Positions 5,526 to 52,595 of a DNA stretch of 64,000 nt are shown in pieces. Source of the stretch: an uncultured delta proteobacterium (GTDB lineage: Bacteria; Desulfobacterota; BSN033; UBA1163); contig CAVQFR010000014.1 of NCBI GenBank assembly GCA_963711845.1, positions 73,644 to 137,643 on the forward strand, written 5' to 3'. The notes beneath the pieces were generated by a model. It saw nothing but the letters and a program-made list of their open reading frames with translations. It ran no database searches and had not been told where the DNA came from. Every line of letters begins with the position of its first letter. Position 1 is the stretch's first letter. The position numbers and the translations under genes are program-made.

Positions 5526-6695
5526 TCAAGGGAGTCTCTGTCTAACTCCTCTGATGATATCGACCACATTATTCTGCATCTTTCCATCTTTGATATCTGC
5601 CACACAGATATAAAGGTCGGCGATCACTTGCCCTCGCTCGTCAAAGCGGATCGGTCCCCGCGGGCTGTTCAGGGAGACCTTGGAAATGGCCGCCAGGAAT
5701 TTGTCTTTATCGGAGAGATTCCCTTTAACGCTGGTAGCGGCTGCCAGGATGACCTTGGCGGCATCATAAGCATTCACACTGGGCAACGACGGGTCGGTAT
5801 TAAATTTGGCTCGAAAAGCGGCCACGAACTTCTTATTTTCGGGAAGATCGATGGTCGGTGTGTACGGAGTGACCACCGTATTCCCTTTGATAAAATCCTT
5901 GATCGAATCCATGATCGTTTCTTCATTGATGCCGATCCAGCCGGTCAGGGGTATCTTATCCTTGAGACCGAAGTCCACGTATTGGGAATCAAATTTCACT
6001 GCATCCGCGCCCGCATACCAGGCATATACCGCATCGATATCCCTTCTCATCTGCGAAAGGTAAGGCCCGAAATCAGGCGTATTCATCGGCGTGTAGACCT
6101 CCTGAAGAATCTGCCCTCCCATCTGCTCAAAGCCTTTTTTGAAAGCAGCCACCGAATCACGGCCTGCCGGAAAATCAATGCCAAACCCAACCATTTTACG
6201 ATATCCTTTTTTCTTATAAAGCCACTCCGCAAAGGGGAAATTCGCCTGGCTCGGTATCACCTGGAGGCGAAACGTATACTTGTTGGCCAGGGGCGGAAGC
6301 GTCAGATTCTCCGGCATGGCCAGGGGTACAATCCAGGGAACCTTCTGTTGGACAACGTAGTCCCTCATGGCCACGGCAGCAGCAGCGTTGACAGGCCCCA
6401 TCAGGACATCGATATGGTCCTTCTCCACCAGTTTCTGGGTCTTGGTCAGTGCAATGGCCGGTGACATGACCTCGTCTTCTATGATAACCTTGATGGTCTT
6501 GCCGGCGACACGGTTGGACACTTCATCAAGAGCCAGGGTAAATCCTCTGATGATGTGCGTGCCCTGGAATGTCATTGGACCTGTCTGGGACGCCAGAAGA
6601 CCGATCGTGATCGATTCTTCCGCGCTGAAGGCTGCCAGAGGGAATACGAAGAGGACGATAAAAAGGATGAGTAGCGTGTGCCGGGTCTTTTTCAT
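5526..6695 (-). CDS. ABC transporter substrate-binding protein, branched-chain amino acid (LivK/Leu-Ile-Val-binding) family
   Basis: 389-aa ORF with N-terminal signal peptide (MKKTRHTLLILFIVLFVFPLAAFSA) and type-I periplasmic binding protein fold sequence; divergent from permease/ATPase genes. Confidence 0.85.
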   Translation of the reverse strand: MKKTRHTLLILFIVLFVFPLAAFSAEESITIGLLASQTGPMTFQGTHIIRGFTLALDEVSNRVAGKTIKVIIEDEVMSPAIALTKTQKLVEKDHIDVLMGPVNAAAAVAMRDYVVQQKVPWIVPLAMPENLTLPPLANKYTFRLQVIPSQANFPFAEWLYKKKGYRKMVGFGIDFPAGRDSVAAFKKGFEQMGGQILQEVYTPMNTPDFGPYLSQMRRDIDAVYAWYAGADAVKFDSQYVDFGLKDKIPLTGWIGINEETIMDSIKDFIKGNTVVTPYTPTIDLPENKKFVAAFRAKFNTDPSLPSVNAYDAAKVILAAATSVKGNLSDKDKFLAAISKVSLNSPRGPIRFDERGQVIADLYICVADIKDGKMQNNVVDIIRGVRQRLP

Positions 6696-6846
6696 ACTGA
6701 CTCCTTTCTCTATTTTGTGATCATCTGAATTCGGTATACCCCTTTCCTCTCCGTGGTGAAATGAGAAGAAGGATTTACAATGAACTAAAATTATATTAAA
6801 CCCATGTCTGTGTCAAGATGTCCGCACCAGATAATCCATAATCGTC

Positions 6847-6867
6847 ATCCTGAACTTGTTTCAGGAT
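6847..6867. promoter_or_regulatory. candidate operator palindrome ATCCTGAA-N5-TTCAGGAT
   Basis: Perfect 8-5-8 inverted repeat in the divergent promoter region between the binding-protein gene and permease gene. Confidence 0.4.
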
Positions 6868-6890
6868 CTATGGGTTATCGAAAATGAGAG

Positions 6891-6911
6891 ATGCTGAAAA
6901 AATTTCAGCAT
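6891..6911. promoter_or_regulatory. candidate operator palindrome ATGCTGAAA-AAA-TTTCAGCAT
   Basis: Perfect 9-3-9 inverted repeat, shares CTGAA/TTCAG half-sites with the palindrome at 6847..6867. Confidence 0.4.
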
Positions 6912-7030
6912 GACAGGGATATCGTTAAGGTTTTGAAATTCGATTACGGATTATGTCCGGATGAAATCTTCTTGATTTTAACTCTCCCTCGATATACCAT
7001 GCATCTAATTCTGGAACAACCCCTTAAGTC

Positions 7031-8926
7031 ATGATCTCCTACTGGCTCACGCATATCGTTAACGGACTCTCCTTCGGCATGCTCCTTTTTGTCCTGGCCG
7101 CAGGGCTATCGCTCATTTTCGGGTTATGCCGGATCGTCAACCTGTCCCATGGTTCTTTCTACCTGTTGGGAGGGTATATTGGATTCTCAACGGTTCGCTT
7201 GACCGGAAATTTTCCCCTTGCCGTCCTCCTCGCCATGCTCTCCATGGCCGTTCTGGGAATACTGACGGAACGCATTCTCCTTCGCCGGTTCCGGGTCAAG
7301 CCCCTGGCCCAGGTGTTGTTGACCTTCGGTCTTATCTTCGTTTTTCAGGACGCGGCCATATGGATATGGGGAGGAACGCCTGTCCTGTTGAAGAAACTTC
7401 CTATCCTCACCGGCGCGACGAACCTCTTCGGTTTTTACTATCCGACCTACAGACTTCTCATCCTGTTGATCGGGTTGGTCATCCTTTTCTTTCTCTGGTG
7501 GCTCCTGATACGCACCCGGCTGGGCATCTTCATCCGGGCGGCGGTTGACGACGGAGAAATGGCGAATGGGGTCGGGATTCGCATGAATCTTCTCATGACC
7601 ATGGCCTTCGGTTTTGGCACCCTGTTGACAGGACTGGCCGGGAGTATCGGGGCGCCCTTTCTGGGGGTCTATCCCGGTCTGGATATCGAGGTGCTGCTCT
7701 ATGCGATGGCCGTGGTCATCGTCGGCGGTCTGGGCAGCTTGAAGGGCTCTTTCCTGGGCGCCCTCATGGTTGGCTTAGTCGACTCGATGGCCAAGGCCCT
7801 CTGGCCGGAGACGGGCATGTTTTCGATGTTTGCCCTGATGGCCATCGTATTGATTCTGAAACCTACCGGTCTTTTCGGCCTTCCCATTGCACCCATCAGC
7901 CAGGCATCGGTGTCGGAGGAGATCTTTCTTGAAGCGATTCCTTCAGGCGCCGGACATCCGTTGGGGTGGAGACGGAGGGCGTTGATCCATCCCTCATTCA
8001 TCTGGATCATGACGGCCTGTCTGGTGGCTGCAGGCCTGCTCTGTCCGATCATTCTTTCTACATACTACGTCAGACTGTTTACCCTGGCCTTGATTTGGGC
8101 GATCTTTGCCATGAGCCTCGATCTCATTCTCGGCCTGGGAGGAATCATCTCTCTCGGCCATGCGGTATTTTTCGGAATCTCTGCCTACACGATCGGATTG
8201 GCAGCTCGGTTCTTAACGCCCAATCTTTTCCTCCAGATCGGCCTAGCTCTGTTCGTCTCTGCCTTCGCTGCCCTGGTGTTGGGATGGCTTCTGCTCAGGA
8301 GTCGCGGGGTCTATTTCATGATGTTGACCATCGCCTTTTCCCAGGTCTTTCGGGCGATTGCCCATTCCTGGCGTTCCGTGACAGGCGGAGGGGATGGCCT
8401 CTCCGGTTTTGTACGGCCCATGTGGATGACTTCTGTCGAAACCTTCTACTACTTCGCCCTCTTCGTATTCATCGCCGTCTTTCTCTTCCTCCGATTTTTC
8501 GTCAAATCGCGGGTCGGAATCTCCCTGATCGGGATCCGCGAAAGTGAAAAACGCATGACGAGCCTTGGCTATCACGTAGACCACATCAAGCTTCTCTCCT
8601 TCGTCGTGTCGGGCGGCCTCGGCGGGATCGCCGGCCTCCTGAACGTCTATTTCAACGGGTACGTCAGCCCTGATTATTTTTCTGTGGATACATCCGCACA
8701 GGCCATCATCATGATCATTCTTGGCGGTGCAGGAACATTGATCGGACCCATCCTCGGATCGTTCTTCGTCATCTTCATGCAGAACATCTTGAGCGCCGTG
8801 ATGGAGCGATGGACCCTGGTCCTCGGCGTTCTCTTCATCCTGGTGGTGATCGGCGCCCCGGCAGGAATGGTGGGACTTTGGAGAAAACAATGGCACAAAT
8901 TCAGCCGGAGACAATCCCCGTCCTGA
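7031..8926 (+). CDS. branched-chain amino acid ABC transporter permease, fused LivH-LivM
   Basis: 631-aa polytopic membrane ORF; N-half LivH-like (…VNLSHGSFYLLGGYIGF…), C-half LivM-like (…LDLILGLGGIISLGHAVFFGISAYT…). Confidence 0.9.
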   Translation: MISYWLTHIVNGLSFGMLLFVLAAGLSLIFGLCRIVNLSHGSFYLLGGYIGFSTVRLTGNFPLAVLLAMLSMAVLGILTERILLRRFRVKPLAQVLLTFGLIFVFQDAAIWIWGGTPVLLKKLPILTGATNLFGFYYPTYRLLILLIGLVILFFLWWLLIRTRLGIFIRAAVDDGEMANGVGIRMNLLMTMAFGFGTLLTGLAGSIGAPFLGVYPGLDIEVLLYAMAVVIVGGLGSLKGSFLGALMVGLVDSMAKALWPETGMFSMFALMAIVLILKPTGLFGLPIAPISQASVSEEIFLEAIPSGAGHPLGWRRRALIHPSFIWIMTACLVAAGLLCPIILSTYYVRLFTLALIWAIFAMSLDLILGLGGIISLGHAVFFGISAYTIGLAARFLTPNLFLQIGLALFVSAFAALVLGWLLLRSRGVYFMMLTIAFSQVFRAIAHSWRSVTGGGDGLSGFVRPMWMTSVETFYYFALFVFIAVFLFLRFFVKSRVGISLIGIRESEKRMTSLGYHVDHIKLLSFVVSGGLGGIAGLLNVYFNGYVSPDYFSVDTSAQAIIMIILGGAGTLIGPILGSFFVIFMQNILSAVMERWTLVLGVLFILVVIGAPAGMVGLWRKQWHKFSRRQSPS

Positions 8927-9768: not shown

Positions 9769-10518
9769 ATGGAAAGTAGACCAATCCTAATAGTGGAAGA
9801 GATTCATACCTATTACGGCCAGAGCCATATTCTCCAGGGGGTCACCCTCTCCCTGGAGCAGGGGGCCATCGTTGCTGTGCTCGGCCGTAACGGCGTGGGG
9901 AAGACGACGCTCATAAGATCTCTCATCGGATTCAACATCCCCAGAGAAGGGAAGATTTATTTTAAAGGTGAGGAGATTACCCGGATGGAGCCCTACGGGA
10001 GGGTCGATGTTGGGTTGGCCCTGGTTCCTCAAGGACGCCGGATCTTTGGCTCATTGACTGTGGAAGAGAACTTGCTTTCCTCGGCAAAGAGGAGAGAAAA
10101 AAGAAAGATCTGGGATCAAAACGGAATTTTTGACCTCTTCCCTCAGCTCAAAGAGAGAAAAAAAGTCAGGGCTTCCCATCTGAGCGGAGGAGAACAGCAG
10201 ATGTTGGCCATTGGCCGGGCCCTTGTCAGCAATCCCGACCTTCTCCTCCTGGATGAACCCACGGAAGGACTTTCTCCTTCTGTGATCCGGGAATTGATCA
10301 AGATTCTTTCTCAACTGGCAAAAGAGGGACAATCCGTCCTCCTTGTCGAACAGAATCTGCAATTTGCCCTGAGTCTTGCAAGTTACCTGTTCATCCTGAG
10401 CAGAGGAAAGATGGTTTATGAGTCAACGCCCTCGGAGCTCTCCCAAAAACCTGAGGTCCAGCTCGCCTATCTCGGGGTTGGCCAGTCCGAGACGAAAGAG
10501 ATGAAACCATCCGAATAA
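9769..10518 (+). CDS. branched-chain amino acid ABC transporter ATP-binding protein (LivF-like)
   Basis: Walker A GRNGVGKTT, signature LSGGEQQML, Walker B LLLLDEPTEGL. Confidence 0.9.
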   Translation: MESRPILIVEEIHTYYGQSHILQGVTLSLEQGAIVAVLGRNGVGKTTLIRSLIGFNIPREGKIYFKGEEITRMEPYGRVDVGLALVPQGRRIFGSLTVEENLLSSAKRREKRKIWDQNGIFDLFPQLKERKKVRASHLSGGEQQMLAIGRALVSNPDLLLLDEPTEGLSPSVIRELIKILSQLAKEGQSVLLVEQNLQFALSLASYLFILSRGKMVYESTPSELSQKPEVQLAYLGVGQSETKEMKPSE

Positions 10519-10702
10519 ATTCTGAGAAAAAGTCCTTAAGGCGAGAAGACGTTGTTTCACTCACCATAGCCATCCCTTCAATCGAAAATTGGCGGAATTT
10601 GCCTCTGCCACTCCCTTGTTTCAAAAAGAAACTTGTGTTAGAGACAAATGAATACAATCTAGTGTAGCATATCTAACACCTCTTTACACCGATCCCGAAG
10701 CC

Positions 10703-10767
10703 GTCATTCCCGCGAAAGCGGGAATCCAGATTAGATACACTGGATTCCGGGTCAAGCCCGGAATGAC
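10703..10767. repeat. nested-palindrome element with GTCATTCC...GGAATGAC termini (family member 1)
   Basis: gtcattcccgcgaaagcgggaatcc...ctggattccgggtcaagcccggaatgac: two adjacent hairpins with similar stems plus terminal inverted repeat; second copy with same architecture at 40246..40359. Confidence 0.5.
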
Positions 10768-10921
10768 AAATACAGGAGAGGAACTTTTAATTCACTACAC
10801 TGGCAAAGCCATATTTCGTTCAAATCTCCCTCTCACCTTCCAGCGGGGGAGGTAGATCGTGGAGAATGTTAGAAAAACCTTTTAGACCTAGATACATCAA
10901 AATCCAAAGAAGGAGAATGCG

Positions 10922-12580
10922 ATGCGATCCGATGCGATGAAAAAAGGACTCGAAAGGGCGCCCCATCGTTCCCTCTTCAAGGCCCTGGGGCTTACGGATG
11001 AAGAGATTGAACGACCCATGATTGGAATTGCAAACTCAGCCAATGAAGTCATTCCAGGCCACCTCCATCTGCACCAGATCTCTGACGCCGTGAAGGCAGG
11101 AATCCGAATGGCAGGCGGGACACCTCTCGAGTTCTTTACGATCGGCGTCTGTGATGGGATCGTCATGGGCCATGAAGGAATGAAATACTCCCTCAGCTCA
11201 AGAGAATTGATTGCAGATTCCGTTGAATCCATGGCCATGGCCTACCCTTTCGATGGTCTCGTTCTCATTCCCAATTGCGACAAGATTGTGCCCGGAATGA
11301 TGATGGCGGCGGCCCGGCTCAATATTCCCAGCATTGTCATCAGCGGCGGTCCCATGCTGACGGGCGATTTCCAGGGAAAGGAGTACGACGTTATTTCCGT
11401 ATTTGAATGCGTCGGAAGAGTGAAGGTTGGGAAAATGACGCTCGACGACCTCAAAGAGGTTGAAGGCTGCGCCTGCCCGGGTGTGGGATCCTGTGCAGGG
11501 ATGTTTACAGCTAACTCGATGAACTGCCTTTCGGAAGTCCTTGGCCTTGCCCTTCCCTATAATGGTACGATCCCTGCCGTCTTCGCTGAACGGATCCGTC
11601 TGGCAAAGAAGAGCGGCATGCAGATCATGGACCTCGTCAAGCGGGATTTGAAACCCTCCAGGATCCTGACGAAGAAGGCCTTTGAGAATGCCATCACTGT
11701 TGACATGGCCTTCGGAGGATCGACGAACACTTCCCTTCACCTCCCAGCCATTGCGAAGGAAGCGGGAATCGAACTATCCCTCGCTGCCTTTAATGAGATC
11801 AGCGAAAAGACCCCCCATCTCTGCAACATGTCTCCGGGGGGTCCTCATCATTTACAGGAACTTCACCAGGCAGGAGGGATCCCTGCGCTAATGCTCGAAT
11901 TGAGCTGTGGAAATCTGATTCACCGGGATGCATTGACCGTTACGGGAAAAAAAGTTGGGGAGAACCTCAAGGGAAAGAAGACCCATAACCCGGAGGTCAT
12001 CCGCTCCCTAAAAAGACCCTACCATCAAACCGGAGGGCTTGCCGTCCTTTTCGGGAATTTGGCGCCCCAGGGAGCAGTCGTAAAACGCTCTGCGGTTGAT
12101 GACGCCATGCTGAAGCACCGGGGACCGGCCAGGGTCTTTGATACCGAAGAAGAAGCCCTGAAGATGGTCCTGAATGGAAAGATCTTGAAGGGGGATGTCG
12201 TGGTGATCCGGTATGAAGGACCGAAGGGCGGACCGGGCATGAGGGAGATGCTGGCCCCGACCTCTGCGATTGCAGGTGTAGGAAGAGATCGCGATGTGGC
12301 CCTCATCACGGACGGCCGGTTCTCAGGAGGAAGCCGCGGAGCAGCCATCGGCCATGTCTCTCCCGAAGCTGCCGAGGGAGGCCCCATTGCTGCGGTTCAG
12401 AACGGGGATCTGATTGAGATCGATATTCCGAATAAGAAACTGAGTCTCCTCATCTCTGAAGAGGAATTGAAGAAGAGATTGTCCCAGTGGAAGCCACCTC
12501 AGAAAAAACTCAAAGGATATCTCAAAAGGTATGCAAAGCTGGTACAATCGGCCAACACCGGAGCCACCTTCGAAGACTAA
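10922..12580 (+). CDS. ilvD: dihydroxy-acid dehydratase
   Basis: 552-aa ORF with IlvD/EDD family hallmarks ([27 protein letters not shown], Fe-S ligand region [16 protein letters not shown]); SD AAGGAGA 6 nt upstream of ATG. Confidence 0.95.
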
Positions 12581-12627: not shown

Positions 12628-14077
12628 CTATCTTTTAAGTACGGGCACGGAATATGGCCCTTCTCGAATGAAGGCCACAGTCGGTTCAATCCCTTTTTCT
12701 CGATAACGGTAAACAGCAAATTGGACAGCCTTCTGTACCATCTCCTGGGCCTTCTCAACGGCAGGCTTTATCCTTTTTCCCTTCATAAAATCGAGGCCAC
12801 AGACTCCCGGAAGGATGCAGTAATTTTCTCTCTCAATTTCCAGGGAACAATAAATCAGCCCGTCCTCTCCGATTTTTCTCAGGACCTTCCCCCAGACCTC
12901 GGGTTCCCATTGATCCTTTGTAAACTTCCAGCCGGAAGTTTTCAGTAAATCGAGATAGCCGTCCGGTCCCTGCAATTTTAGCAGGTGAATCAGACTTCTG
13001 TATTCCGGAGACCCGATGGGGTTGATGAAATCCCGGTTATTCGCTGCGATGATGATGACACCCCCTTCTTTCACCGCCGGGATAGCGCCCACCCCTGCCT
13101 TGGCCGTCTGGTAATGATCTCTTCCCACATATCCGCTGTGAGTCAGTACGATATCGAACTCCTCATCAAGAGGGATCTCCGCATAGCCCTTGATCATTTC
13201 AAAGGCCTTCATATTTCCCTCCACCATATCCCCTGTAAATACTCTCACGAGGCGCAAATCTTTATCCAGGTTGACGTTGATAACAAAATCAACTCCGACC
13301 GTCTGGGCAACTTCCAAAGCCTCCTCGTGACATGGATTCCCTTCGAGGACGAGGTTCGTTGCCCGGGGGTCTTCAAGATAAGGCAGGCCCGTGAAATCTT
13401 TGAATGGTCTTGACGTCCACCAATCCCGGACAAACGGATTTTCTCCCACCGGAGATCCCTGTGAAAAAATGACTCTCGACGAGTCCTGTCGCAATCTTCA
13501 GGTCCGCAAAATAGAAGTCCCGATTGACATAGACATGGGTCCCTCTTTTTGTCTTTCCGATACTCTCCAAAAGATCGTTATTCTCACAATCGTGGTCCAG
13601 GATCGTGTACTGTTTAACCACTTCCTCCCCGTACATCTCCACCTTCTCATCCGGGGTGCTTGCTCGATGCATTCCTGTCGCTACAATAATCTTGATATTT
13701 TCTTTCTTAATCCCTGAAGACTCCAGGCGTCCAAGCAGCGGGGGGAGGATGCCGCCTTCTCCTTTATAAGGAACGGGCCTTGTAATATCGGAAACAGCAA
13801 TGGCCACAGACATCTGTTCGGGAGGTTTCCCTTTTTTCCGGATGATCTCTTCCAAAGGGGGACTGCTGATGGGGGCTAGAAAAGCCTGCTCAAAGGCCTT
13901 TTGGGGATCCGGTAATACGGCAACCTCCTTCATGGTGAGTTCAACACTGTTTGGAGGCACCCAAACCTCTATCGCGTTTCTTCCAAACTCTACTGAGATT
14001 TTCTTCCAATCCTTCATATCAATTTTTTTAATAGCCTTTTTAAGGTCGCTTCGCATCGTGGTTCTCCTGACGATCAT
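12628..14077 (-). CDS. LarA-family (nickel-dependent lactate racemase-like, DUF2088) protein, interrupted by apparent -1 frameshift
   Basis: Two overlapping ORFs (13373..14077 N-part with VAIAVSDITRP, IVATGMHR, FFTGISGGRKSVCPG; 12628..13494 C-part with LEGNPCHEE) together match one LarA-like protein; frame change near 13380-13400 at a G/C run. Confidence 0.7.
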
Positions 14078-39650: not shown

Positions 39651-40199
39651 TTAAGGCACCTTATTGTGGGCTTTGCCCATGTATCGTTCTTTCTCGCTGT
39701 AGATGCAGCCACAATATTGCTGGCGGTACAGTCCCAGGGACTTGGATACCTCCAGTCCCCTTCTCCATCCTTGCCGAAAATCTTCGTAATAAAATGGAAT
39801 CCCTATCTCTTGAGCGATGCGCTCCCCGGTTTCCTTGATCTGAGCATGATTTTGATGGGAGCTTTGGAGAAGGGTGCTTGAAAATCTATCAAAACCCTGA
39901 TCCCTCGCCTCGCGAGCTGTGGCTTCAAGACGGATTGAATAACAAAACTGACATCTTTCCTTAACTCGATGGGAGACATTTCTTAGGAACTCTTCCAGGA
40001 GATATTCATCCCGATAGATCACCTTCAACCCAACTTTTTGGGAGTATTGTTTCAACGCGTCGAGTCTTTTTTGGTATTCCTGGTAAGGGTGAATGTTGGG
40101 GTTGAAAAAATATCCGATGGCCTCCTCCCCTTTTTCATCGATTCGCTCAAGGGGATAGATAGCACAGTTGGCACAACAAATATGGAGGAGAATTTTCAT
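39651..40199 (-). CDS. queH: epoxyqueuosine reductase QueH (DUF208)
   Basis: MKILLHICCANCAIYP N-terminus and C-terminal YCGCIYS cysteine cluster. Confidence 0.85.
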   Translation of the reverse strand: MKILLHICCANCAIYPLERIDEKGEEAIGYFFNPNIHPYQEYQKRLDALKQYSQKVGLKVIYRDEYLLEEFLRNVSHRVKERCQFCYSIRLEATAREARDQGFDRFSSTLLQSSHQNHAQIKETGERIAQEIGIPFYYEDFRQGWRRGLEVSKSLGLYRQQYCGCIYSEKERYMGKAHNKVP

Positions 40200-40245
40200 T
40201 CTACTCAAACTTCACAAAACCACACTTAAGGCTTCCTCTAAAAAT

Positions 40246-40359
40246 GTCATTCCTGCCCCGATTTTCATCGGGATAGACTCCAGCAGGAATCCATAAGCTC
40301 TTGACATAACTGGACTCCCGCCGGAGTTTACCCCGTACTGGATACGGGGCGGGAGTGAC
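40246..40359. repeat. nested-palindrome element with GTCATTCC...GGAGTGAC termini (family member 2)
   Basis: gtcattcctgc…gcaggaatcc…actggactcccgcc…ggcgggagtgac; same two-hairpin architecture as 10703..10767. Confidence 0.5.
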
Positions 40360-40430
40360 GAATTGAAAATTATTATGGGGTCCCCTAACGCTCTGGGGAT
40401 TCGAATTCAGGGTTAGTTAGCAGCAAGGGT

Positions 40431-42896
40431 TCACTTTGCAGAATCTTTCCTCCGGGGAATTCCCAGCTCCTTCTCGACCTGTAAGATTCTATCGGTCGTC
40501 TTGATGACGGTATCAGGGTTGAGGGAGATGCTGTCGATGCCACACCGGACCAGAAACTCGGCGAATTCCGGATAATCGCTGGGAGCCTGGCCGCAGATGC
40601 CAATCTTCCTTCCATTCTTCTTGGCGCTTTCAATCAATGATTGAACCATTTTTTTCACCGCCGGATCCCGCTCATCGAAGATATGAGAAACTTTCTCTGA
40701 ATCACGATCCAATCCCAATACCAACTGGGTCAGATCATTCGATCCGATGGAGAATCCGTCAAAAACCTCGGCAAATTCATCAGCCATGATCACATTGCTG
40801 GGGATCTCACACATCACATAGATCTCAAGGCCATTTTGCCCCTGGATCAGACCGTGCTTTCTCATCTCCGCAATGACCAACCTCCCCTCCTCCACCGTCC
40901 TGCAGAAGGGAATCATCAATTTTACATTGGTCAAACCCATCTCATTCCGAACCTTTTTCATCGCCTTGCATTCAAGAGAAAACCCTTCCTGATAAGACTC
41001 ATCATAATACCGGGAGGCTCCCCGGAAACCAATCATGGGGTTGTCTTCAACAGGTTCAAATTCGCTTCCACCGATGAGATTGGCGTACTCATTGCTCTTA
41101 AAATCGCTCATTCTCACGATGACATCTTTAGGATAAAAGGCAGCAGCGATCTTGGCCACCCCTTGAGCCAGCCGATCGACGAAGAAGACCTCCTTATCTT
41201 CATACCCGATGGTCAACTGTTCAATCTCCTTTTTAATATGACTATCGCTGATTGAATCAAATCGGACAAGCGCCATGGGGTGGATTCGTATAAAATTATT
41301 GATAATGAATTCCAGTCTGGCCAGACCCACCCCGTCATTGGGAATAAAGGAAAGGTGGAAAGCATTGTCCGGGTTTCCCACATTCATCATGATTTTTGTT
41401 TGAGGCTTCTCCAGATGTGCCATATCGAAGTGCCTCACTTCATAATCGAGGATCCCTTCGAAAACCAATCCCGTCTCCCCTTGCGCACAACAAACGGTGG
41501 CACTTCGATAGTCTTTCAAAAGCTCGCTTCCATCCCTTGTTCCCACCACACAGGGAACGCCCAGCTCCCGGCTGATGATGGCCGCATGACATGTCCTTCC
41601 CCCGCGGTCGGTCACAATGCCCGAGGCAATTTTCATGATGGGTTCCCAGTCCGGGTCCGTCATCTGGGTGACCAATATCTCGCCCTTCTTAAACTTCTCT
41701 ATCTCTCTTGGACTGGTGATGACATTGATGGGGCCAGCGCCAATCTTTTCACCGACGCTCTTCCCCTGGACCAAAACATTCCCCTTCTCCTTTAAGTAGT
41801 AGGTCTCCAGAACATTCATCGCTCGCTGGGATTTTACCGTCTCGGGCCGTGCTTGAAGAATAAAGAGTTCCTGGGTAATACCATCCTTGGCCCACTCAAT
41901 ATCCATGGGCATGTAGACCCCTGCTTTTTTCGAATAGTGCTCTTCGATCCTCACCCCCCATTGGGCAAGGAGGATAATCTCTTCGTCGCTCAGGATGAAA
42001 TCCGCCCTTTCTTGTGCGGAGACAGGAACATTCTTGGTTGACCCCTCTCCCTCCAGGGTGTAAATCATTTTGATCTCTTTACTTCCGAGGGTTTTCTGAA
42101 TGATGGGTTTATAATTTCCTTTAATGCAGGGTTTAAATACATAGAATTCATCGGGATTGATAACTCCCTGAACAATATTCTCCCCTAATCCATAAGCACC
42201 TGTGATGTACACCACGTCAGGAAAGCCGGATTCTGTATCGATCGTGAACATCACCCCAGAACAGGCCTTATCGGAGCGCACCATCTTCTGAACTCCGATA
42301 GAAAGAGCGACCGAAAAGTGGTCAAACCCCCTATGGGTTCTGTAGGAGATGGCGCGGTTGGTAAAAAGGGAGGCAAAACATCGTTTGCAGGCTTGAACGA
42401 GGGCGTATTCCCCGCGGATGTTGAGATAAGTCTCCTGCTGACCGGCAAAACTCGCACCAGGAAGGTCTTCGGCTGTTGCGCTGCTACGGACCGCCACATC
42501 CGTATCCTCCCCATACTCCTTGCACAACTTCCGATAGGCTTTAACAACCTCCTCAACGATCTCCCTGGGAAACTCCAAACTGTGGATAAGCCTCCGGACC
42601 CGGCTTCCCCTCTCTGAAAGGTTTTCCACATTTTCGACATCGAGATCAGAAAAGATCTCTCGAATATTTTCTTTGATCTTTGGTTTACTCTTACCATCAT
42701 GCCAGTCTTGGACAATCCCTTCGTCCAAAAGGGCATGGTAGGCATTCACGGTTACAGCAAATCCATTAGGGACACTCACCCCTTGTTTCGTCAGTTCCTT
42801 TCGCATCTCTCCCAAGGAGGCATTCTTTCCTCCAACTGTGGGAAGATCGTCGAGTCCAATTTCGTCAAACCAAAGAATGTAAGGTTTTTCCCCCAT
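40431..42896 (-). CDS. ppsA: phosphoenolpyruvate synthase (pyruvate, water dikinase)
   Basis: 821-aa ORF with PEP-utilising enzyme mobile domain (phosphohistidine region GGRTCHAAIISRELGVPCVVG) and PEP/pyruvate-binding TIM-barrel. Confidence 0.95.
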   Translation of the reverse strand: MGEKPYILWFDEIGLDDLPTVGGKNASLGEMRKELTKQGVSVPNGFAVTVNAYHALLDEGIVQDWHDGKSKPKIKENIREIFSDLDVENVENLSERGSRVRRLIHSLEFPREIVEEVVKAYRKLCKEYGEDTDVAVRSSATAEDLPGASFAGQQETYLNIRGEYALVQACKRCFASLFTNRAISYRTHRGFDHFSVALSIGVQKMVRSDKACSGVMFTIDTESGFPDVVYITGAYGLGENIVQGVINPDEFYVFKPCIKGNYKPIIQKTLGSKEIKMIYTLEGEGSTKNVPVSAQERADFILSDEEIILLAQWGVRIEEHYSKKAGVYMPMDIEWAKDGITQELFILQARPETVKSQRAMNVLETYYLKEKGNVLVQGKSVGEKIGAGPINVITSPREIEKFKKGEILVTQMTDPDWEPIMKIASGIVTDRGGRTCHAAIISRELGVPCVVGTRDGSELLKDYRSATVCCAQGETGLVFEGILDYEVRHFDMAHLEKPQTKIMMNVGNPDNAFHLSFIPNDGVGLARLEFIINNFIRIHPMALVRFDSISDSHIKKEIEQLTIGYEDKEVFFVDRLAQGVAKIAAAFYPKDVIVRMSDFKSNEYANLIGGSEFEPVEDNPMIGFRGASRYYDESYQEGFSLECKAMKKVRNEMGLTNVKLMIPFCRTVEEGRLVIAEMRKHGLIQGQNGLEIYVMCEIPSNVIMADEFAEVFDGFSIGSNDLTQLVLGLDRDSEKVSHIFDERDPAVKKMVQSLIESAKKNGRKIGICGQAPSDYPEFAEFLVRCGIDSISLNPDTVIKTTDRILQVEKELGIPRRKDSAK

Positions 42897-43136: not shown

Positions 43137-43202
43137 GAGAATTGATTTTTGAATGAATTATTATTAATATAAGATGTTATCCTAGAGAAGGAAGTGAAAT
43201 TC

Positions 43203-46031
43203 ATGAAAAGTTCGAAATATGTCTACCTTTTTGAAGAAGCCGATGGGACCGATAAGAAACTCCTTGGCGGGAAAGGAGCGGGTTTGGCCGAAATGACCCG
43301 TATGGGTCTCCCTGTTCCGCCTGGATTTATCGTCACCACCGAGGCTTGTCTTCATTTTTATGAGAACAAAAAGAGACTTCCTAAAGGCCTCCTGGAAGAG
43401 GTGGAAGTCAATCTGAAAATGGTGGAGGAAAAAACAGGCAAAAAACTTGGAAGCGCTCAAAATCCCCTCTTCTTCTCTGTCCGGTCGGGCGCGGCGATGT
43501 CCATGCCTGGAATGATGGACACCATTCTCAATTTGGGCTTAAACGAGAAGACTCTTGAGGGTTTGATCCAGATCACGTCGGATGGAAGATTTGCCTATGA
43601 TGCTTACCGAAGATTTATTCAACTTTTCGGAAAGATCGCCTTGGGGTTGGAAGAAAAGGAATTTGACCAAATCCTTAACCAGACAAAAGAAAGAGTGGGG
43701 GCCAAAGAGGATATTGATCTCAATGCTGATTATCTCAAGGACATTTGTAAACAATATCTGGGATTAATCAAAAAAAGGACGGGAACCCCTTTTCCTCAAG
43801 ACCCGATGGTTCAACTCAGACTCGCCATTGAAGCGGTTTTCAAATCCTGGATGGGCAAGAGGGCGGTGGATTATCGAAAGGAATTCAACATCACCCGTGA
43901 CATGGCGAACGGAACCGCCGTCAATGTCTGCACCATGGTTTTTGGGAACATGGGTTTTGACTCGGCAACGGGGGTTGCGTTTACACGAGACCCGGGCACA
44001 GGAGAGAACATTCTCTATGGGGAATATCTTGTGAATGCCCAGGGTGAAGATGTCGTGGCCGGGATCCGGACACCCAAACCCATCCAAGAGATGAAGAAGG
44101 AAATGCCGAAAACCTACCGAGAGATGGAGCGGATCAGAAAAATCTTGGAAGAGCATTTTCATGAAGTTCAGGACTTCGAGTTCACCGTGGAGAAGGGGAC
44201 CCTCTATATCCTTCAAACTCGAAATGGGAAGATGAACGCTCAGGCGATCGTTCGAACTTCTAAAGACATGGTCTCTGAAAAACTAATTAATAAGGAAAAA
44301 GCTGTCCTGAGATTGAAACCTCAAGAGCTGGAACAACTCCTCCATAAGCGGATCGATCCAAATTTCAAGGGGAAACCAGTCTGCGTCGGCCTCGCAGCTT
44401 CCCCGGGAGCAGCCTCCGGAAAAGCAGTGTTCGATGCGGATGAAGCAGAAAGGTTGGGAAAACTTGGGCAAAAACTCATATTGGTGCGAGAGGAAACGAA
44501 ACCCGAGGATATTCATGGCTTCTTTGCTGCCCAGGGGATCTTGACGAGCCGGGGAGGAAAGACCTCCCATGCCGCAGTGGTCGCAAGGGGTATGGGCAAA
44601 CCCTGTGTATCTGGATGCGAAGAGTTGCACATCGATCCACAGAAGAGAGAGACCACCGTAGGGAATATTCACATCAAAGAAGGAGATTTCATCACCATCG
44701 ATGGCTCCAGAGGCGAGGTCTATCTGGGAGAGGTCCCTACCGTAGACCCTGAAATCAGCAAAGACCTCCTTACGCTCCTGGGTTGGGGGGATGGGATAAG
44801 AACGTTGGGCGTTCGGGCCAATGCCGATACCCCTGAGGCCGCGATCAAAGCAAGGCAGCTGGGTGCAGAAGGGATCGGTCTCTGCCGAACAGAGAGAATG
44901 TTCAACGCCGCGGATCGGCTCCCCATTGTTCGGGAGATGATCTTGGCGGGGTCGAAAGAGAAGAGGGCAGAAGCGATTGCAAAGCTTCTTCCCATGCAGC
45001 GCAGCGACTTTAAGGAGATCTTCAGGGCCATGGAAGGACTGCCGGTGACCATCCGTCTCCTCGACCCACCGCTTCATGAATTTCTCCCATCCGCCGAAGA
45101 ACTGGCCGAAGAATTGAGAAAGCTGAAGGAGATTGATACCGCCTTTTCCACCATGGAAAACATCTCTGATGCGATGAAGTTTCTGGATCCCTCTTTCCGC
45201 GAATCACTGGGACTCCTCGACCACGTGGTGACGGATATCGTCGAGATTAAAGAGAAGAGGCTCGATAAGAAGCTCATCCGAAAAGAGCAGGAAACTCTCA
45301 GGAAGGTGAAAGAGATGATGGAGGTCAACCCCATGCTGGGTCATCGAGGGGTCAGGTTGGGGATTACCTATCCAGAGATCTATAAGATGCAGATTCAGGC
45401 GATTCTGGAGGCCGCCGCCGAGTTGATCAAAGAAGGTCTTGATATTCAACCTGAAATTATGGTCCCCCAAGTCTGCACCGCCCAAGAATTGAAATGGGTT
45501 TCTCAACTCGTCTTAAAGGTCCAAAAGGAAGTGGAGAAACAATTTAGAATCCGGATCCCCTTCAAATTCGGGACGATGATCGAAGTGGTGAGAGCCTGTA
45601 TGAGGGCCGGGAGATTGGCGGAGGTGGCAGACTTCTTCTCCTTCGGGACCAACGACCTCACTCAGGCCACCTTCTCTTTCTCCAGAGAAGATGCGGAAAA
45701 CAAATTCCTGCCCCTTTACAATCAGCGGAAGATTCTCCAGGACAATCCCTTTGAAGTATTGGATGTGAAAGGCGTGGGAAGGTTAATGATGATCGCGATC
45801 GAGTGGGGAAGGAGGACAAAACCGGATCTGAAGATTGGGATCTGTGGTGAACATGGTGGGCATCCGGAATCGGTCGAATTCAGTCACAGCATCGGACTTT
45901 CCTATGTCAGTTGCTCTGCTCCACGCCTCCCGATTGCGCGTCTGGCAGCCGCCCATGCCAAATTGAAAGAGAAGGAGAAAAAACCTTCGGAAAAATACGA
46001 CCCCGATGTTTTTGGCATACCCTCTGTTTAA
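43203..46031 (+). CDS. ppdK: pyruvate, phosphate dikinase
   Basis: About 940-aa ORF with PPDK N-terminus (KYVYLFEEADG…GGKGAGLAEM), phosphohistidine domain (GGKTSHAAVVARGMGKPCVSG) and C-terminal PEP-binding barrel; ATG 43203 preferred (SD AGAAGGAAG). Confidence 0.95.
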   Translation: MKSSKYVYLFEEADGTDKKLLGGKGAGLAEMTRMGLPVPPGFIVTTEACLHFYENKKRLPKGLLEEVEVNLKMVEEKTGKKLGSAQNPLFFSVRSGAAMSMPGMMDTILNLGLNEKTLEGLIQITSDGRFAYDAYRRFIQLFGKIALGLEEKEFDQILNQTKERVGAKEDIDLNADYLKDICKQYLGLIKKRTGTPFPQDPMVQLRLAIEAVFKSWMGKRAVDYRKEFNITRDMANGTAVNVCTMVFGNMGFDSATGVAFTRDPGTGENILYGEYLVNAQGEDVVAGIRTPKPIQEMKKEMPKTYREMERIRKILEEHFHEVQDFEFTVEKGTLYILQTRNGKMNAQAIVRTSKDMVSEKLINKEKAVLRLKPQELEQLLHKRIDPNFKGKPVCVGLAASPGAASGKAVFDADEAERLGKLGQKLILVREETKPEDIHGFFAAQGILTSRGGKTSHAAVVARGMGKPCVSGCEELHIDPQKRETTVGNIHIKEGDFITIDGSRGEVYLGEVPTVDPEISKDLLTLLGWGDGIRTLGVRANADTPEAAIKARQLGAEGIGLCRTERMFNAADRLPIVREMILAGSKEKRAEAIAKLLPMQRSDFKEIFRAMEGLPVTIRLLDPPLHEFLPSAEELAEELRKLKEIDTAFSTMENISDAMKFLDPSFRESLGLLDHVVTDIVEIKEKRLDKKLIRKEQETLRKVKEMMEVNPMLGHRGVRLGITYPEIYKMQIQAILEAAAELIKEGLDIQPEIMVPQVCTAQELKWVSQLVLKVQKEVEKQFRIRIPFKFGTMIEVVRACMRAGRLAEVADFFSFGTNDLTQATFSFSREDAENKFLPLYNQRKILQDNPFEVLDVKGVGRLMMIAIEWGRRTKPDLKIGICGEHGGHPESVEFSHSIGLSYVSCSAPRLPIARLAAAHAKLKEKEKKPSEKYDPDVFGIPSV

Positions 46032-49459: not shown

Positions 49460-49720
49460 ATGGAAACATCAGCAACTATCAAAGGACAGGTGGTCATCCC
49501 GGCAAAGATCAGGCATCGTCTGCGAATTAAGAAGGGCACCAAATTCTATGTCGAAGAGCGAAAAGGGGAAATAATCCTTCGTCCCCTAAACAAGGAATAT
49601 TTTCAAAAGATGAGTGGTGTTCTTAAGGGAGGAGGACTTATCAAGGCATTAGAAGAAACCAGGGCCGACGATCTTAGGCGAGAGGAGGAGAAAATTGGCC
49701 GCCGCAAAGGTTCTCGATAG
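49460..49720 (+). CDS. AbrB/MazE/SpoVT-family antitoxin
   Basis: N-terminal swapped-hairpin motif TIKGQVVIPAKIRHRLRIKKGTKF…GEIILRP. Confidence 0.7.
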   Translation: METSATIKGQVVIPAKIRHRLRIKKGTKFYVEERKGEIILRPLNKEYFQKMSGVLKGGGLIKALEETRADDLRREEEKIGRRKGSR

Positions 49721-50096
49721 TTGGGCCCTTCTCTGCTACCTTGAGCAAGAACCCGGTTATGAGAAGATAATCGACCTCTTCGACAAAGCTGTTGAGTCCT
49801 CCAAGCCTCTCTTAATGTGCATCGTGAACTGGGGAGAGGTTTATTACCAGGTGATGAGGCGGTTTGGAGATCAAAAAGCACAAGAGATTGAGCAGCTCAT
49901 TCAGACCCTACCGATCACACTGATTGAAGCCAATAAAGAAATTACGCGGGAGGCGGCGCGCATAAAAGCCACAAAACGGATGGCCTATGCGGATTGTTTT
50001 GCCGTCGCCCTCGCCCGCCTAAAAAAAGCAGAACTTTATACAGGGGATAATGAGTTCAAAGCCGTGGAGAAAGAAACAAAGATTGTTTGGCTTTAG
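49695..50096 (+). CDS. PIN-domain toxin (VapC-like)
   Basis: PIN acidic residues in VLDSWALL…, AYADCFAVALA, TGDNEF; TTG start overlapping antitoxin 3' end. Confidence 0.7.
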   Translation: MAAAKVLDSWALLCYLEQEPGYEKIIDLFDKAVESSKPLLMCIVNWGEVYYQVMRRFGDQKAQEIEQLIQTLPITLIEANKEITREAARIKATKRMAYADCFAVALARLKKAELYTGDNEFKAVEKETKIVWL

Positions 50097-52187: not shown

Positions 52188-52595
52188 TCATGTTCTTTTG
52201 CTTTTTGATATCTCCCAAAATTCTCTTGGAGTTATGATTGGGACTGAATGGAACTTCTTCAGCACAAGAAGATCCTTATCTCCAGTAATGATGTAATCGG
52301 GTTTGGCTACTTCAGAAAGACCAAGAATTTTGACATCATCAATATCTCTGCAGGCGTCTTTATCTAACCTTTTATGGTCGCTGAATGTACAAAATTCCTT
52401 CAAATATTCAGTGATCATGAGAACCTTATCCTTAGGCATCTTCATTTTTTTCTGTAAATTCCTTTGAACCTCAGATAGGATGTGTTCGCTGATAATGATT
52501 TCATGCTTTTCCAGGCAGAGTTCAAAAAGGGCGTGGGCCAGCCCTCGCCCTGCAAAGGCCGCTAAAATAACATTTGTATCGAGAATTACTCTCAT
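52188..52595 (-). CDS. PIN-domain toxin (VapC-like)
   Basis: MRVILDTNVILAAF…DIDDVKIL…ITGDKDL; 4-bp overlap with upstream antitoxin. Confidence 0.75.
   Translation of the reverse strand: MRVILDTNVILAAFAGRGLAHALFELCLEKHEIIISEHILSEVQRNLQKKMKMPKDKVLMITEYLKEFCTFSDHKRLDKDACRDIDDVKILGLSEVAKPDYIITGDKDLLVLKKFHSVPIITPREFWEISKSKRT

Follow-up and report, generated by a model that had tools for sequence, protein, structure and literature searches.

Convergent doublets of NTS/SRM-type hairpins in the intergenic DNA of an uncultured bacterium

The survey of a 64-kb stretch of DNA (hereafter the window, meaning the whole stretch that was analysed) revealed three doublets of facing hairpins, all intergenic. 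Copy 1, copy 2 and the third doublet are ordinary members of the known NTS/SRM repeat family, and not local gene-control signals. Each locus is probably a gene-less doublet of Ssn-related NTS/SRM hairpins, which was inserted and has spread or been turned over through Ssn nicking. This reading builds on observed motif identity, on a doublet frame held in common with ssn cassettes, on the insertion status and dispersal of the elements, and on a selected hairpin structure. The action of a cognate Ssn on these copies in this organism is something that we infer, since no ssn gene was found in the 64-kb window by regular-expression and phmmer searches. This kind of repeat has been known since a 2025 paper, and what is new is the host group, the long-loop hairpin and the tight gene-less doublets with outer arms.

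The Neisseria Transformation Sequence (NTS), CGTCATTCCCGCGMAVGCGGGAATCYRG, includes the older dRS3 repeat, and its hairpin is bound by SsnA, a single-domain GIY-YIG nuclease, which cuts just 5' of it and acts on ssDNA only (Chenal et al., Nat Commun 2025, PMC11893778; found through a full-text search with GTCATTCCCGC, and the only relevant paper among the results of the literature string searches). The broader class of Ssn-related motifs (SRMs) flanks 71% of ssn homologues (genes for single-domain GIY-YIG proteins of the cd10448 type) and is described by the pattern HGTCWYN(0-2)YYVSBRHN(0-5)WNVSBRGN(0-2)RNCYNB, hand-built from 29 genomes; for SsnA, the GTC located 5' of the palindrome is critical for cleavage, and the C right after the palindrome for binding (PMC11893778). 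Following the published search rule of at most one mismatch to CGTCATTCCCGCGMAVGCGGGAATCYRG (PMC11893778), the left half of copy 1 (10702-10729) is an NTS, being identical to the consensus (28/28, 0 mismatches), and it matches the SRM pattern as well. The other five halves in the window give no NTS match even with up to four mismatches, and the SRM pattern is matched by one of the six halves; as this pattern cannot span loops longer than 5 nt, such a non-match does not exclude relatedness. All six halves carry GTC directly 5' and C directly 3' of the palindrome, the positions singled out for SsnA (PMC11893778).

The architecture of the elements is detailed in Table 1, where L-numbers designate loci fetched from public collections, L325-L327 by protein sequence alone. 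The initial annotation had described nested palindromes with GTCATTCC termini and a common architecture at two loci. Every feature that it gave for copy 1 (10703-10767) is present: four perfect inverted-repeat pairs, outer arms GTCATTCC/GGAATGAC, hairpins ATTCCCGC/GCGGGAAT at 10706-10725 and ATTCCGGG/CCCGGAAT at 10744-10764, and central arms GGAATCCAG/CTGGATTCC, in the layout GTCATTCC-CGCGAAAGCG-GGAATCCAG, then ATTAGATACA, then CTGGATTCC-GGGTCAAGCCC-GGAATGAC. Copy 2 (40246-40359) follows the plan of copy 1, with arms GTCATTCC/GGAGTGAC and hairpins ATTCCTGC/GCAGGAAT and ACTCCCGCC/GGCGGGAGT, and the expanded loops with sub-hairpins ascribed to it were recovered as two loops of 26-27 nt, each with a sub-hairpin. 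The gene context was likewise as annotated, with copy 1 in the ilvD leader, between an ABC-transporter ATPase gene (livF, 9769-10518) and ilvD (10922-12580), and copy 2 between ppsA (40431-42896, minus strand) and queH (39651-40199, minus strand). The extent and the number of the elements had to be revised. Nested palindromes do occupy the annotated coordinates, but the full units are wider (about 10659-10804 and 40226-40388, thus 146-163 nt) and include family-specific outer inverted arms; the two reported loci stand, but a third doublet at 6844-6914 had been missed, flanked by the genes for a periplasmic binding protein (5526-6695, minus) and for a branched-chain amino-acid permease (7031-8926, plus). 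This third doublet (GTCATCCTGAAC…GGATC and GATGCTGAAA…CATGAC) has the plan of copies 1 and 2 with different stems. In all doublets, the halves are oriented hairpins (GTC, palindrome, C) that face each other, in copies 1 and 2 with the GTCATT ends outward and the two halves 10-15 nt apart. The DNA-fold z-scores of the hairpins range from -3.8 to -5.2 versus shuffled sequence.

Table 1. Features of the three doublets and of the ilvD upstream region, in window coordinates
Feature	Position	Strand	Evidence
Third doublet: GTCATCCTGAACTTGTTTCAGGATC, 23-nt gap, GATGCTGAAAAAATTTCAGCATGAC	6844..6914	.	two perfect convergent stems; fold z -4.3
Copy 1 left outer arm, family-C unit, CTAGTGTAGC…	10659..10702	+	kept in L223, L131, L232, L251
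Segment extra in window versus L245 and L295 livF–ilvD spacer	10661..10905 (245 nt)	.	alignment
Copy 1 left hairpin, canonical NTS, CGTCATTCCCGCGAAAGCGGGAATCCAG	10702..10729	+	DNA fold -9.0 kcal/mol, z -4.7
Copy 1 inter-hairpin spacer ATTAGATACA	10730..10739	.	family-C conservation: CAGTGTTTCTAATCTG in L223
Copy 1 right hairpin, inverted, GTCATTCCGGGCTTGACCCGGAATCCAG, CTTGA-loop class	10740..10768	-	perfect 8-bp stem; fold z -3.8
Copy 1 right outer arm, family-C unit, …CACTACACTGG	10768..10804	+	alignment; L131 and L223 BLAST matches extend to 10788
Copy 2 left outer arm, family-A unit, TTAAGGCTTCCTCTAAAAAT	40226..40245	+	conserved directly 5' of GTCATT in relatives of the unit
Copy 2 left long-loop hairpin, outer stem ATTCCTGC/GCAGGAAT	40246..40294	+	fold z -5.2, exactly that structure
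Copy 2 spacer AAGCTCTTGACATAA	40295..40309	.	family-A conservation: CATAAGCTTTTGACATTACTG in L139
Copy 2 right long-loop hairpin, inverted, GTCACTCCCGCCCCGTATCCAGTACGGGGTAAACTCCGGCGGGAGTCCAG	40310..40360	-	TAAACTCC long-loop class; covariation in both stems
Copy 2 right outer arm GAATTGAAAATTATTATGGGGTCCCCTAA, family-A unit, degenerate here	40360..40388	+	alignment

Motif searches returned at least 120 stretches with the short form of the hairpin in viral contigs and at least 120 with the long-loop form in genome representatives. The MAGs carrying the latter are labelled Syntrophaceae, Thermodesulfobacteriota, Thermodesulfovibrionia, Nitrospirae, Patescibacteria, Planctomycetota, Chloroflexia, Ignavibacteria, Acidobacteria and Rickettsiaceae, among others, and several of them harbour at least 3-5 loci each. 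Adjacent hairpin pairs in the MAG loci are convergent, with GTCATT ends outward, in 43 of 48 cases, and their spacers cluster at 16-21 nt, the two pairs of the window giving 16 and 21 by the same measure. The convergent doublet is thus the normal format of these hairpins. Six Ssn-like ORFs were detected, ssn genes being present within a few kb in only 6 of the first 240 motif-selected loci, and the ssn ORFs inspected exactly fill the position between two convergent hairpins. In L101, an NTS on the plus strand (7786-7809) is followed by ssn (7823-8134) and by an NTS on the minus strand (8141-8164), and the same NTS–ssn–NTS order occurs in L046. L220 possesses two cassettes, one of which lies between a short NTS and a TAAACTCC long-loop hairpin, the latter directly adjoining the start codon. 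Three ssn genes fetched by protein sequence alone (L325-L327) show the NTS–ssn–NTS arrangement too, the upstream hairpin of L326 being identical to the left hairpin of copy 1. The cassette ORFs code for single-domain GIY-YIG proteins of about 100 residues (Pfam GIY-YIG match). Since ssn ORFs fill the doublet frame elsewhere and none does so in the window, the window elements correspond to the gene-less form of NTS–ssn–NTS. No outer arms of family A, B or C were found beside the ssn cassettes seen, which therefore provide no autonomous parent of the family-A and family-C units.

The hairpins of copy 2 belong to a long-loop class that lies outside the published SRM pattern and yet flanks ssn in L220. 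The alignment of 104 distinct long-loop copies gives the consensus GTCATTCCYGC – CCCGYA(N4-6)TRCGGG – RTAAACTCCR – GCRGGAATCCAG; in the left hairpin of copy 2, the inner stem is CCCGAT/ATCGGG and the bulge ATAGACTCCA. Covariation, proposed in the initial annotation as a check on structure, was assessed on 36 distinct 48-nt copies with 500 shuffles: 96.8% of cells are paired, 7 of the 14 pairs are changed on both sides, and none of the 500 shuffles scored as high. Sliding the partner column by 1-3 positions lowers pairing to 24-49%. The structure of the long-loop hairpin is under selection. As the inner stem was left unconstrained by the search pattern, its covariation is free of that ascertainment bias, whereas the ACTCC of the bulge was imposed by the pattern; the T-A-A preceding ACTCC was not imposed, and at least 90% of copies retain it. 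The bulge echoes the motif of the 3' tail (ACTCCAG versus AATCCAG). Other long-loop types occur in L009, L012 and L327. A string search of the open-access literature, the supplementary tables of the Ssn paper apart, found the TAAACTCC form printed nowhere.

The search for further copies suggested in the initial annotation yielded, besides the third doublet, units 86-97% identical at unrelated, non-orthologous loci in other genomes, the identity of whole units being 86-90%. Comparison of the window proteins with 120 motif-bearing genome loci by tblastn revealed no orthologous neighbourhoods, and the shared elements are therefore not syntenic. These units fall into families defined by their outer arms. 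In family A, which includes copy 2, the left arm TTAAGGCTACCTCTAAAAAT lies directly 5' of GTCATT (kept in L127, L129, L139, L144, L156, L177 and L238), the spacer is CATAAGCTTTTGACATTACTG, and the right arm, with the consensus …GGGAATTATTAGAGGTTCCCTTAAG, is inverted-complementary to the left one. Sequences similar to the copy 2 spacer are found in L127, L156, L177 and L238; copies of its left hairpin with 96-98% identity are present in L129, L140, L145, L154, L174, L196, L223 and L239, and an identical 48-nt copy of its right hairpin in L177. Family C, which includes copy 1, has outer arms ACTAGTGTAGTGCGTC… and …GACGCACTACACTAG, also present in L131, L223, L232 and L251, and the alignment shows the left outer arm of copy 1 to be inverted-complementary to the right one. 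The right hairpin of copy 1 recurs in these four loci as well as in L129 and L161. Family B, with the arm CTCGTAAAAAGTC, was met in other MAGs. Within a family, short-loop and long-loop hairpin modules are swapped while the outer arms remain constant.

The short hairpins of the fetched loci form a superfamily with the order GTCAT-stem-loop-stem-ATC, in which GNRA-like loops (GCGAAAGC, GCGCAGGC) can be told from CTTGA-like ones (GGGCTTGACCC, GAACTTGTTTC); family-C doublets, including copy 1, combine one hairpin of each type. Hybrids were also noticed, in L160 (5993-6041), L190 (162-211), L212 (887-939) and L198, where the 3' portion of a long-loop hairpin (…GGGTAAACTCCAGCAGGAATCC) comes directly after an entire short NTS, suggesting recombination or nesting between short and long forms.

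With regard to insertion, both copies are absent from syntenic relatives whose flanking genes share 85-88% nucleotide identity with those of the window, and the empty sites sought in the initial annotation were found in L245 and L295 for copy 1, and in L242 and L243 for copy 2. The livF–ilvD spacer measures about 60-80 nt in L245, 253 nt in L295 and about 400 nt in the window. In the two former loci, which lack the element, the ilvD ribosome-binding site follows almost immediately on a conserved leader segment (…CTTGTGTTAGAGACA…). BLAST alignments to relatives stop at 10518-10522 and restart at 10905-10906, and the left edge of the family-C unit (10659) coincides with the empty-site junction in L245 and L295. 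Between the right junction of copy 1 and the empty-site junction lie about 100 nt of unrelated sequence, and no target-site duplication is evident. The ppsA–queH spacer consists of unrelated sequence devoid of the element in L242 and L243, and of only 97 nt in a third relative; a near-identical strain (74.6-kb contig, 96.5-99.7% identity to the window) carries copy 2 unchanged and is uninformative on empty sites. Copies 1 and 2 are insertions into intergenic DNA. Their designation as MITE-like or REP-like elements in the initial annotation is supported by this absence from relatives, by their dispersal in other genomes and by the covariation of the hairpins.

The sites themselves show further features. 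In L246, whose IlvD is 96% identical, the livF–ilvD spacer (2650-2990) contains at the copy 1 site a different insertion of about 250 nt; along with further NTS-derived palindromes, the CTTGTGTTAGA leader motif is found in it a second time, which points to an insertion hot spot at this site. The ilvD leader segment at 10605-10660, a GTTTC-N5-GAAAC hairpin followed by CTTGTGTTAGAGACA, is kept in L245, L295 and L251; it borders the insertion point on the upstream side and may be a promoter or regulatory site. In the ppsA–queH spacer of L242 (4440-4747), other GC-rich palindromic repeats (GGTGCCTGCC…GGCAAAGGCAGGGGAGAGGGTGGGGGTGAGGGGAGA) replace the NTS doublet, and this spacer is hypervariable.

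The outer arms raise the question of whether the units are moved by a transposase, the arms being then the ends of a TIR-type MITE, and the NTS hairpins its cargo or stabilising core. The arms are inverted, 15-45 nt long, and lie at a fixed distance from GTCATT (0 or 9 nt in family A, 21 or 29 nt in family C), and both the match of the family-C left edge to the empty-site junction and the swapping of hairpin types between constant arms fit such a scheme. We nevertheless hold it to be unlikely, given that no transposase gene with matching ends was found in the window or in the fetched loci, that no target-site duplication is evident, and that the doublet frame is occupied by ssn genes. Furthermore, many doublets have unrelated flanks, and it is therefore the hairpin pair, not the arms, that constitutes the shared unit. 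An origin of the palindromes by chance in AT/GC-balanced intergenic DNA can practically be discarded. The 8-mer GTCATTCC by itself is not over-represented in the window (6 occurrences versus 3.2 expected, with 11 of 100 shuffles reaching 6), but perfect 8-bp stems right after GTC number 6, of which the third doublet provides two, against 0.29 in Markov-1 simulated windows (maximum 2); moreover, chance would leave unexplained the exact 28-nt consensus match and the hundreds of related copies elsewhere.

A role at the site of residence was also considered, either as cis-regulator (an ilvD attenuator, or a ppsA terminator/queH leader) or as a small RNA gene resembling FtrB. Copy 1 is probably transcribed, since it lies between the conserved leader segment and the ilvD ribosome-binding site; its region 10689-10788 scores 28 bits (E 0.006-0.013), below threshold, against Rfam FtrB, an experimentally detected 115-nt RNA of Francisella whose Northern probe sequence is an NTS hairpin, and the covariation of the stems fits RNA as well as ssDNA. 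Such a role appears improbable, however, for elements that are missing from relatives keeping the genes and the leader, that adjoin unrelated genes in other phyla, and around which scans revealed no promoter-like or terminator-like site at either locus. The FtrB score is far under the gathering score of 66, and deletion of ftrB itself caused no growth, stress or virulence phenotype (PMC3091763). At the gathering threshold, Rfam detects three tRNAs only in the window; the microRNA-precursor matches obtained at a relaxed threshold are spurious and caused by the palindromes. Repeats of a RAYT system, i.e., REPs or REPINs depending on an IS200/IS605-type HUH transposase, share the format of the doublets, with two inverted palindromes, a short spacer, an intergenic and dispersed distribution, and a gene flanked by repeats (PMC3116915, PMC3337134). 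This assignment is very improbable, as the gene found inside the frame is that of a GIY-YIG nuclease, not the Y1/HUH gene of a RAYT, and as no Y1/HUH domain was detected among the 20 window ORFs scanned against Pfam. The 5' signature also differs, being GTCAT here and GTAG in REPs.

Compared with known systems, the window elements share with the NTS/SRM-Ssn system the exact NTS half, the oriented GTC-palindrome-C order, the intergenic and multi-copy distribution, and the convergent frame that surrounds ssn elsewhere. They differ from it by the lack of ssn in the window, by five of six halves falling outside the NTS and SRM patterns and, in copy 2, by the 48-nt hairpin with its inner stem and TAAACTCC bulge. 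The host, moreover, appears to be an uncultured Thermodesulfobacteriota-like anaerobe, to judge by the labels of QueH relatives with 78-85% identity, in contrast to Neisseria or symbionts. Tight gene-less doublets within armed units of 146-163 nt are absent from the main text of PMC11893778. The neisserial intergenic mosaic elements (NIMEs) offer a further likeness, as the ATTCCC-N8-GGGAAT of dRS3 is contained in the left half of copy 1, and mosaic build-up from interchangeable hairpin modules is common to NIMEs, to the BIMEs of E. coli and to the present units. In NIMEs, repeat units of 50-150 bp form arrays in which dRS3, known since about 2000, separates the units. Neisseria gonorrhoeae records in the plasmid collection contain 29-30 matches each; hairpin pairs of Neisseria-like viral loci are spaced by 23-32 and 52-63 nt, whereas copies 1 and 2 are isolated doublets, with halves 10-15 nt apart.

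The closest functional analogy is with the REPIN–RAYT system, where inverted palindrome doublets forming a long hairpin are likewise non-autonomous, intergenic and dispersed, the enzyme gene being flanked by repeats (Bertels and Rainey 2011, PMC3116915). The enzyme is, however, an HUH tyrosine transposase there and a GIY-YIG nuclease here, the sequence signatures differ, and REPINs are described as vertically inherited within lineages, whereas near-identical hairpins occur here across many phyla. Bacterial MITEs of the Correia type resemble the units by their size of about 150 bp, their terminal inverted repeats, their intergenic insertion and their presence/absence polymorphism between relatives. 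The core of the window units is instead a pair of hairpins of a protein-recognised type, no parent IS was found, and the outer arm sequences, read directly, are presumably unlike Correia ends. As for FtrB (Rfam RF02748), its consensus has the layout of copy 1, with an NTS hairpin (GUCAUUCCCGCGUAGGCGGGAAUC) followed by a GUCAAGC-loop hairpin. The score of copy 1 (28 bits, for a gathering score of 66) places it outside this family, and FtrB differs in being a detected transcript. FtrB was reported as restricted to Francisella, and the link to NTS was not made (Postic et al. 2010, PMC3091763), but it appears to be a transcribed NTS-type doublet; since its probe has the NTS sequence and an RNA was detected, such elements can yield stable RNAs. 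Candidate attC sites, CRISPR arrays and IS200/IS605 ends were set aside by reading of the sequence, which contains no GTTRRRY core sites, regular array or Y1 transposase.

Returning to the probable spread or turnover of the doublets through Ssn nicking, the following course can be proposed. In DNA made single-stranded during replication, transformation or repair, each half would fold, and a cognate Ssn would bind the hairpin and nick a few nucleotides 5' of GTCATT, so that a convergent doublet would receive one nick per strand at its outer borders. Through repair or recombination at these nicks, doublets would be spread or replaced much as in REPINs or in homing, with a copying step that is hypothetical; to our knowledge, GIY-YIG nucleases only cut DNA. 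As in Neisseria, incoming motif-bearing ssDNA would be restricted as well. Points that weigh against this reading are the lack of ssn in the window and its scarcity near the motif elsewhere, the five halves outside the SRM pattern, and the absence of an autonomous parent among the ssn cassettes seen and of an evident target-site duplication. Any influence on ilvD, ppsA and queH is probably incidental. More tentatively, we can propose that NTS doublets and ssn form a REPIN/RAYT-like partnership based on a GIY-YIG nuclease, in which gene-less doublets may represent non-autonomous copies or landing pads of the NTS–ssn–NTS cassette. On the same reading, the TAAACTCC long-loop hairpin, with its inner covarying stem and a conserved 10-nt bulge repeating the A-TCCAG motif of the 3' tail, may be the specificity class of its own Ssn subfamily. 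Were this partnership real, near-identity of the hairpins across Patescibacteria, Planctomycetota, Nitrospirota, Chloroflexota, Thermodesulfobacteriota and Rickettsiaceae would mean frequent horizontal spread of the pair. Independently of this proposal, the NTS/Ssn system reaches many uncultured phyla in a compact doublet format paralleling that of REPINs. In the long-loop bulged class, Ssn enzymes of novel ssDNA specificity have a natural candidate substrate, and it is this property that gives the Ssn family its interest as a tool. With regard to annotation, the proper label for palindromes of this type in uncultured anaerobes is that of Ssn-related repeats, and they should not be read as attenuators, terminators, sRNA genes or spurious ORFs.

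Some genes of the window deserve mention in their own right. The lactate racemase (LarA-like) gene at 12628-14077 (minus strand) is interrupted: its two overlapping ORFs, 13373-14077 (Pfam Lar_N) and 12628-13494, lie in different frames, owing to a frameshift or a sequencing error. Two PIN-domain (VapC-like) genes, at 49695-50096 and 52188-52595, probably belong to toxin-antitoxin modules. The ppsA gene (40431-42896, minus) has as divergent neighbour a paralogue coding for a 945-residue protein of the PPDK/PpsA type (43194-46031, plus), both products being PEP-utilising enzymes. Finally, the QueH protein of the window has 182 residues and lacks PF05635, the four-helix-bundle domain of 23S rRNA intervening sequences, while in many relatives (L242, L243, L244 and others) the protein reaches about 310 residues with a PF05635 match, the QueH part coming first in L242 and L243.
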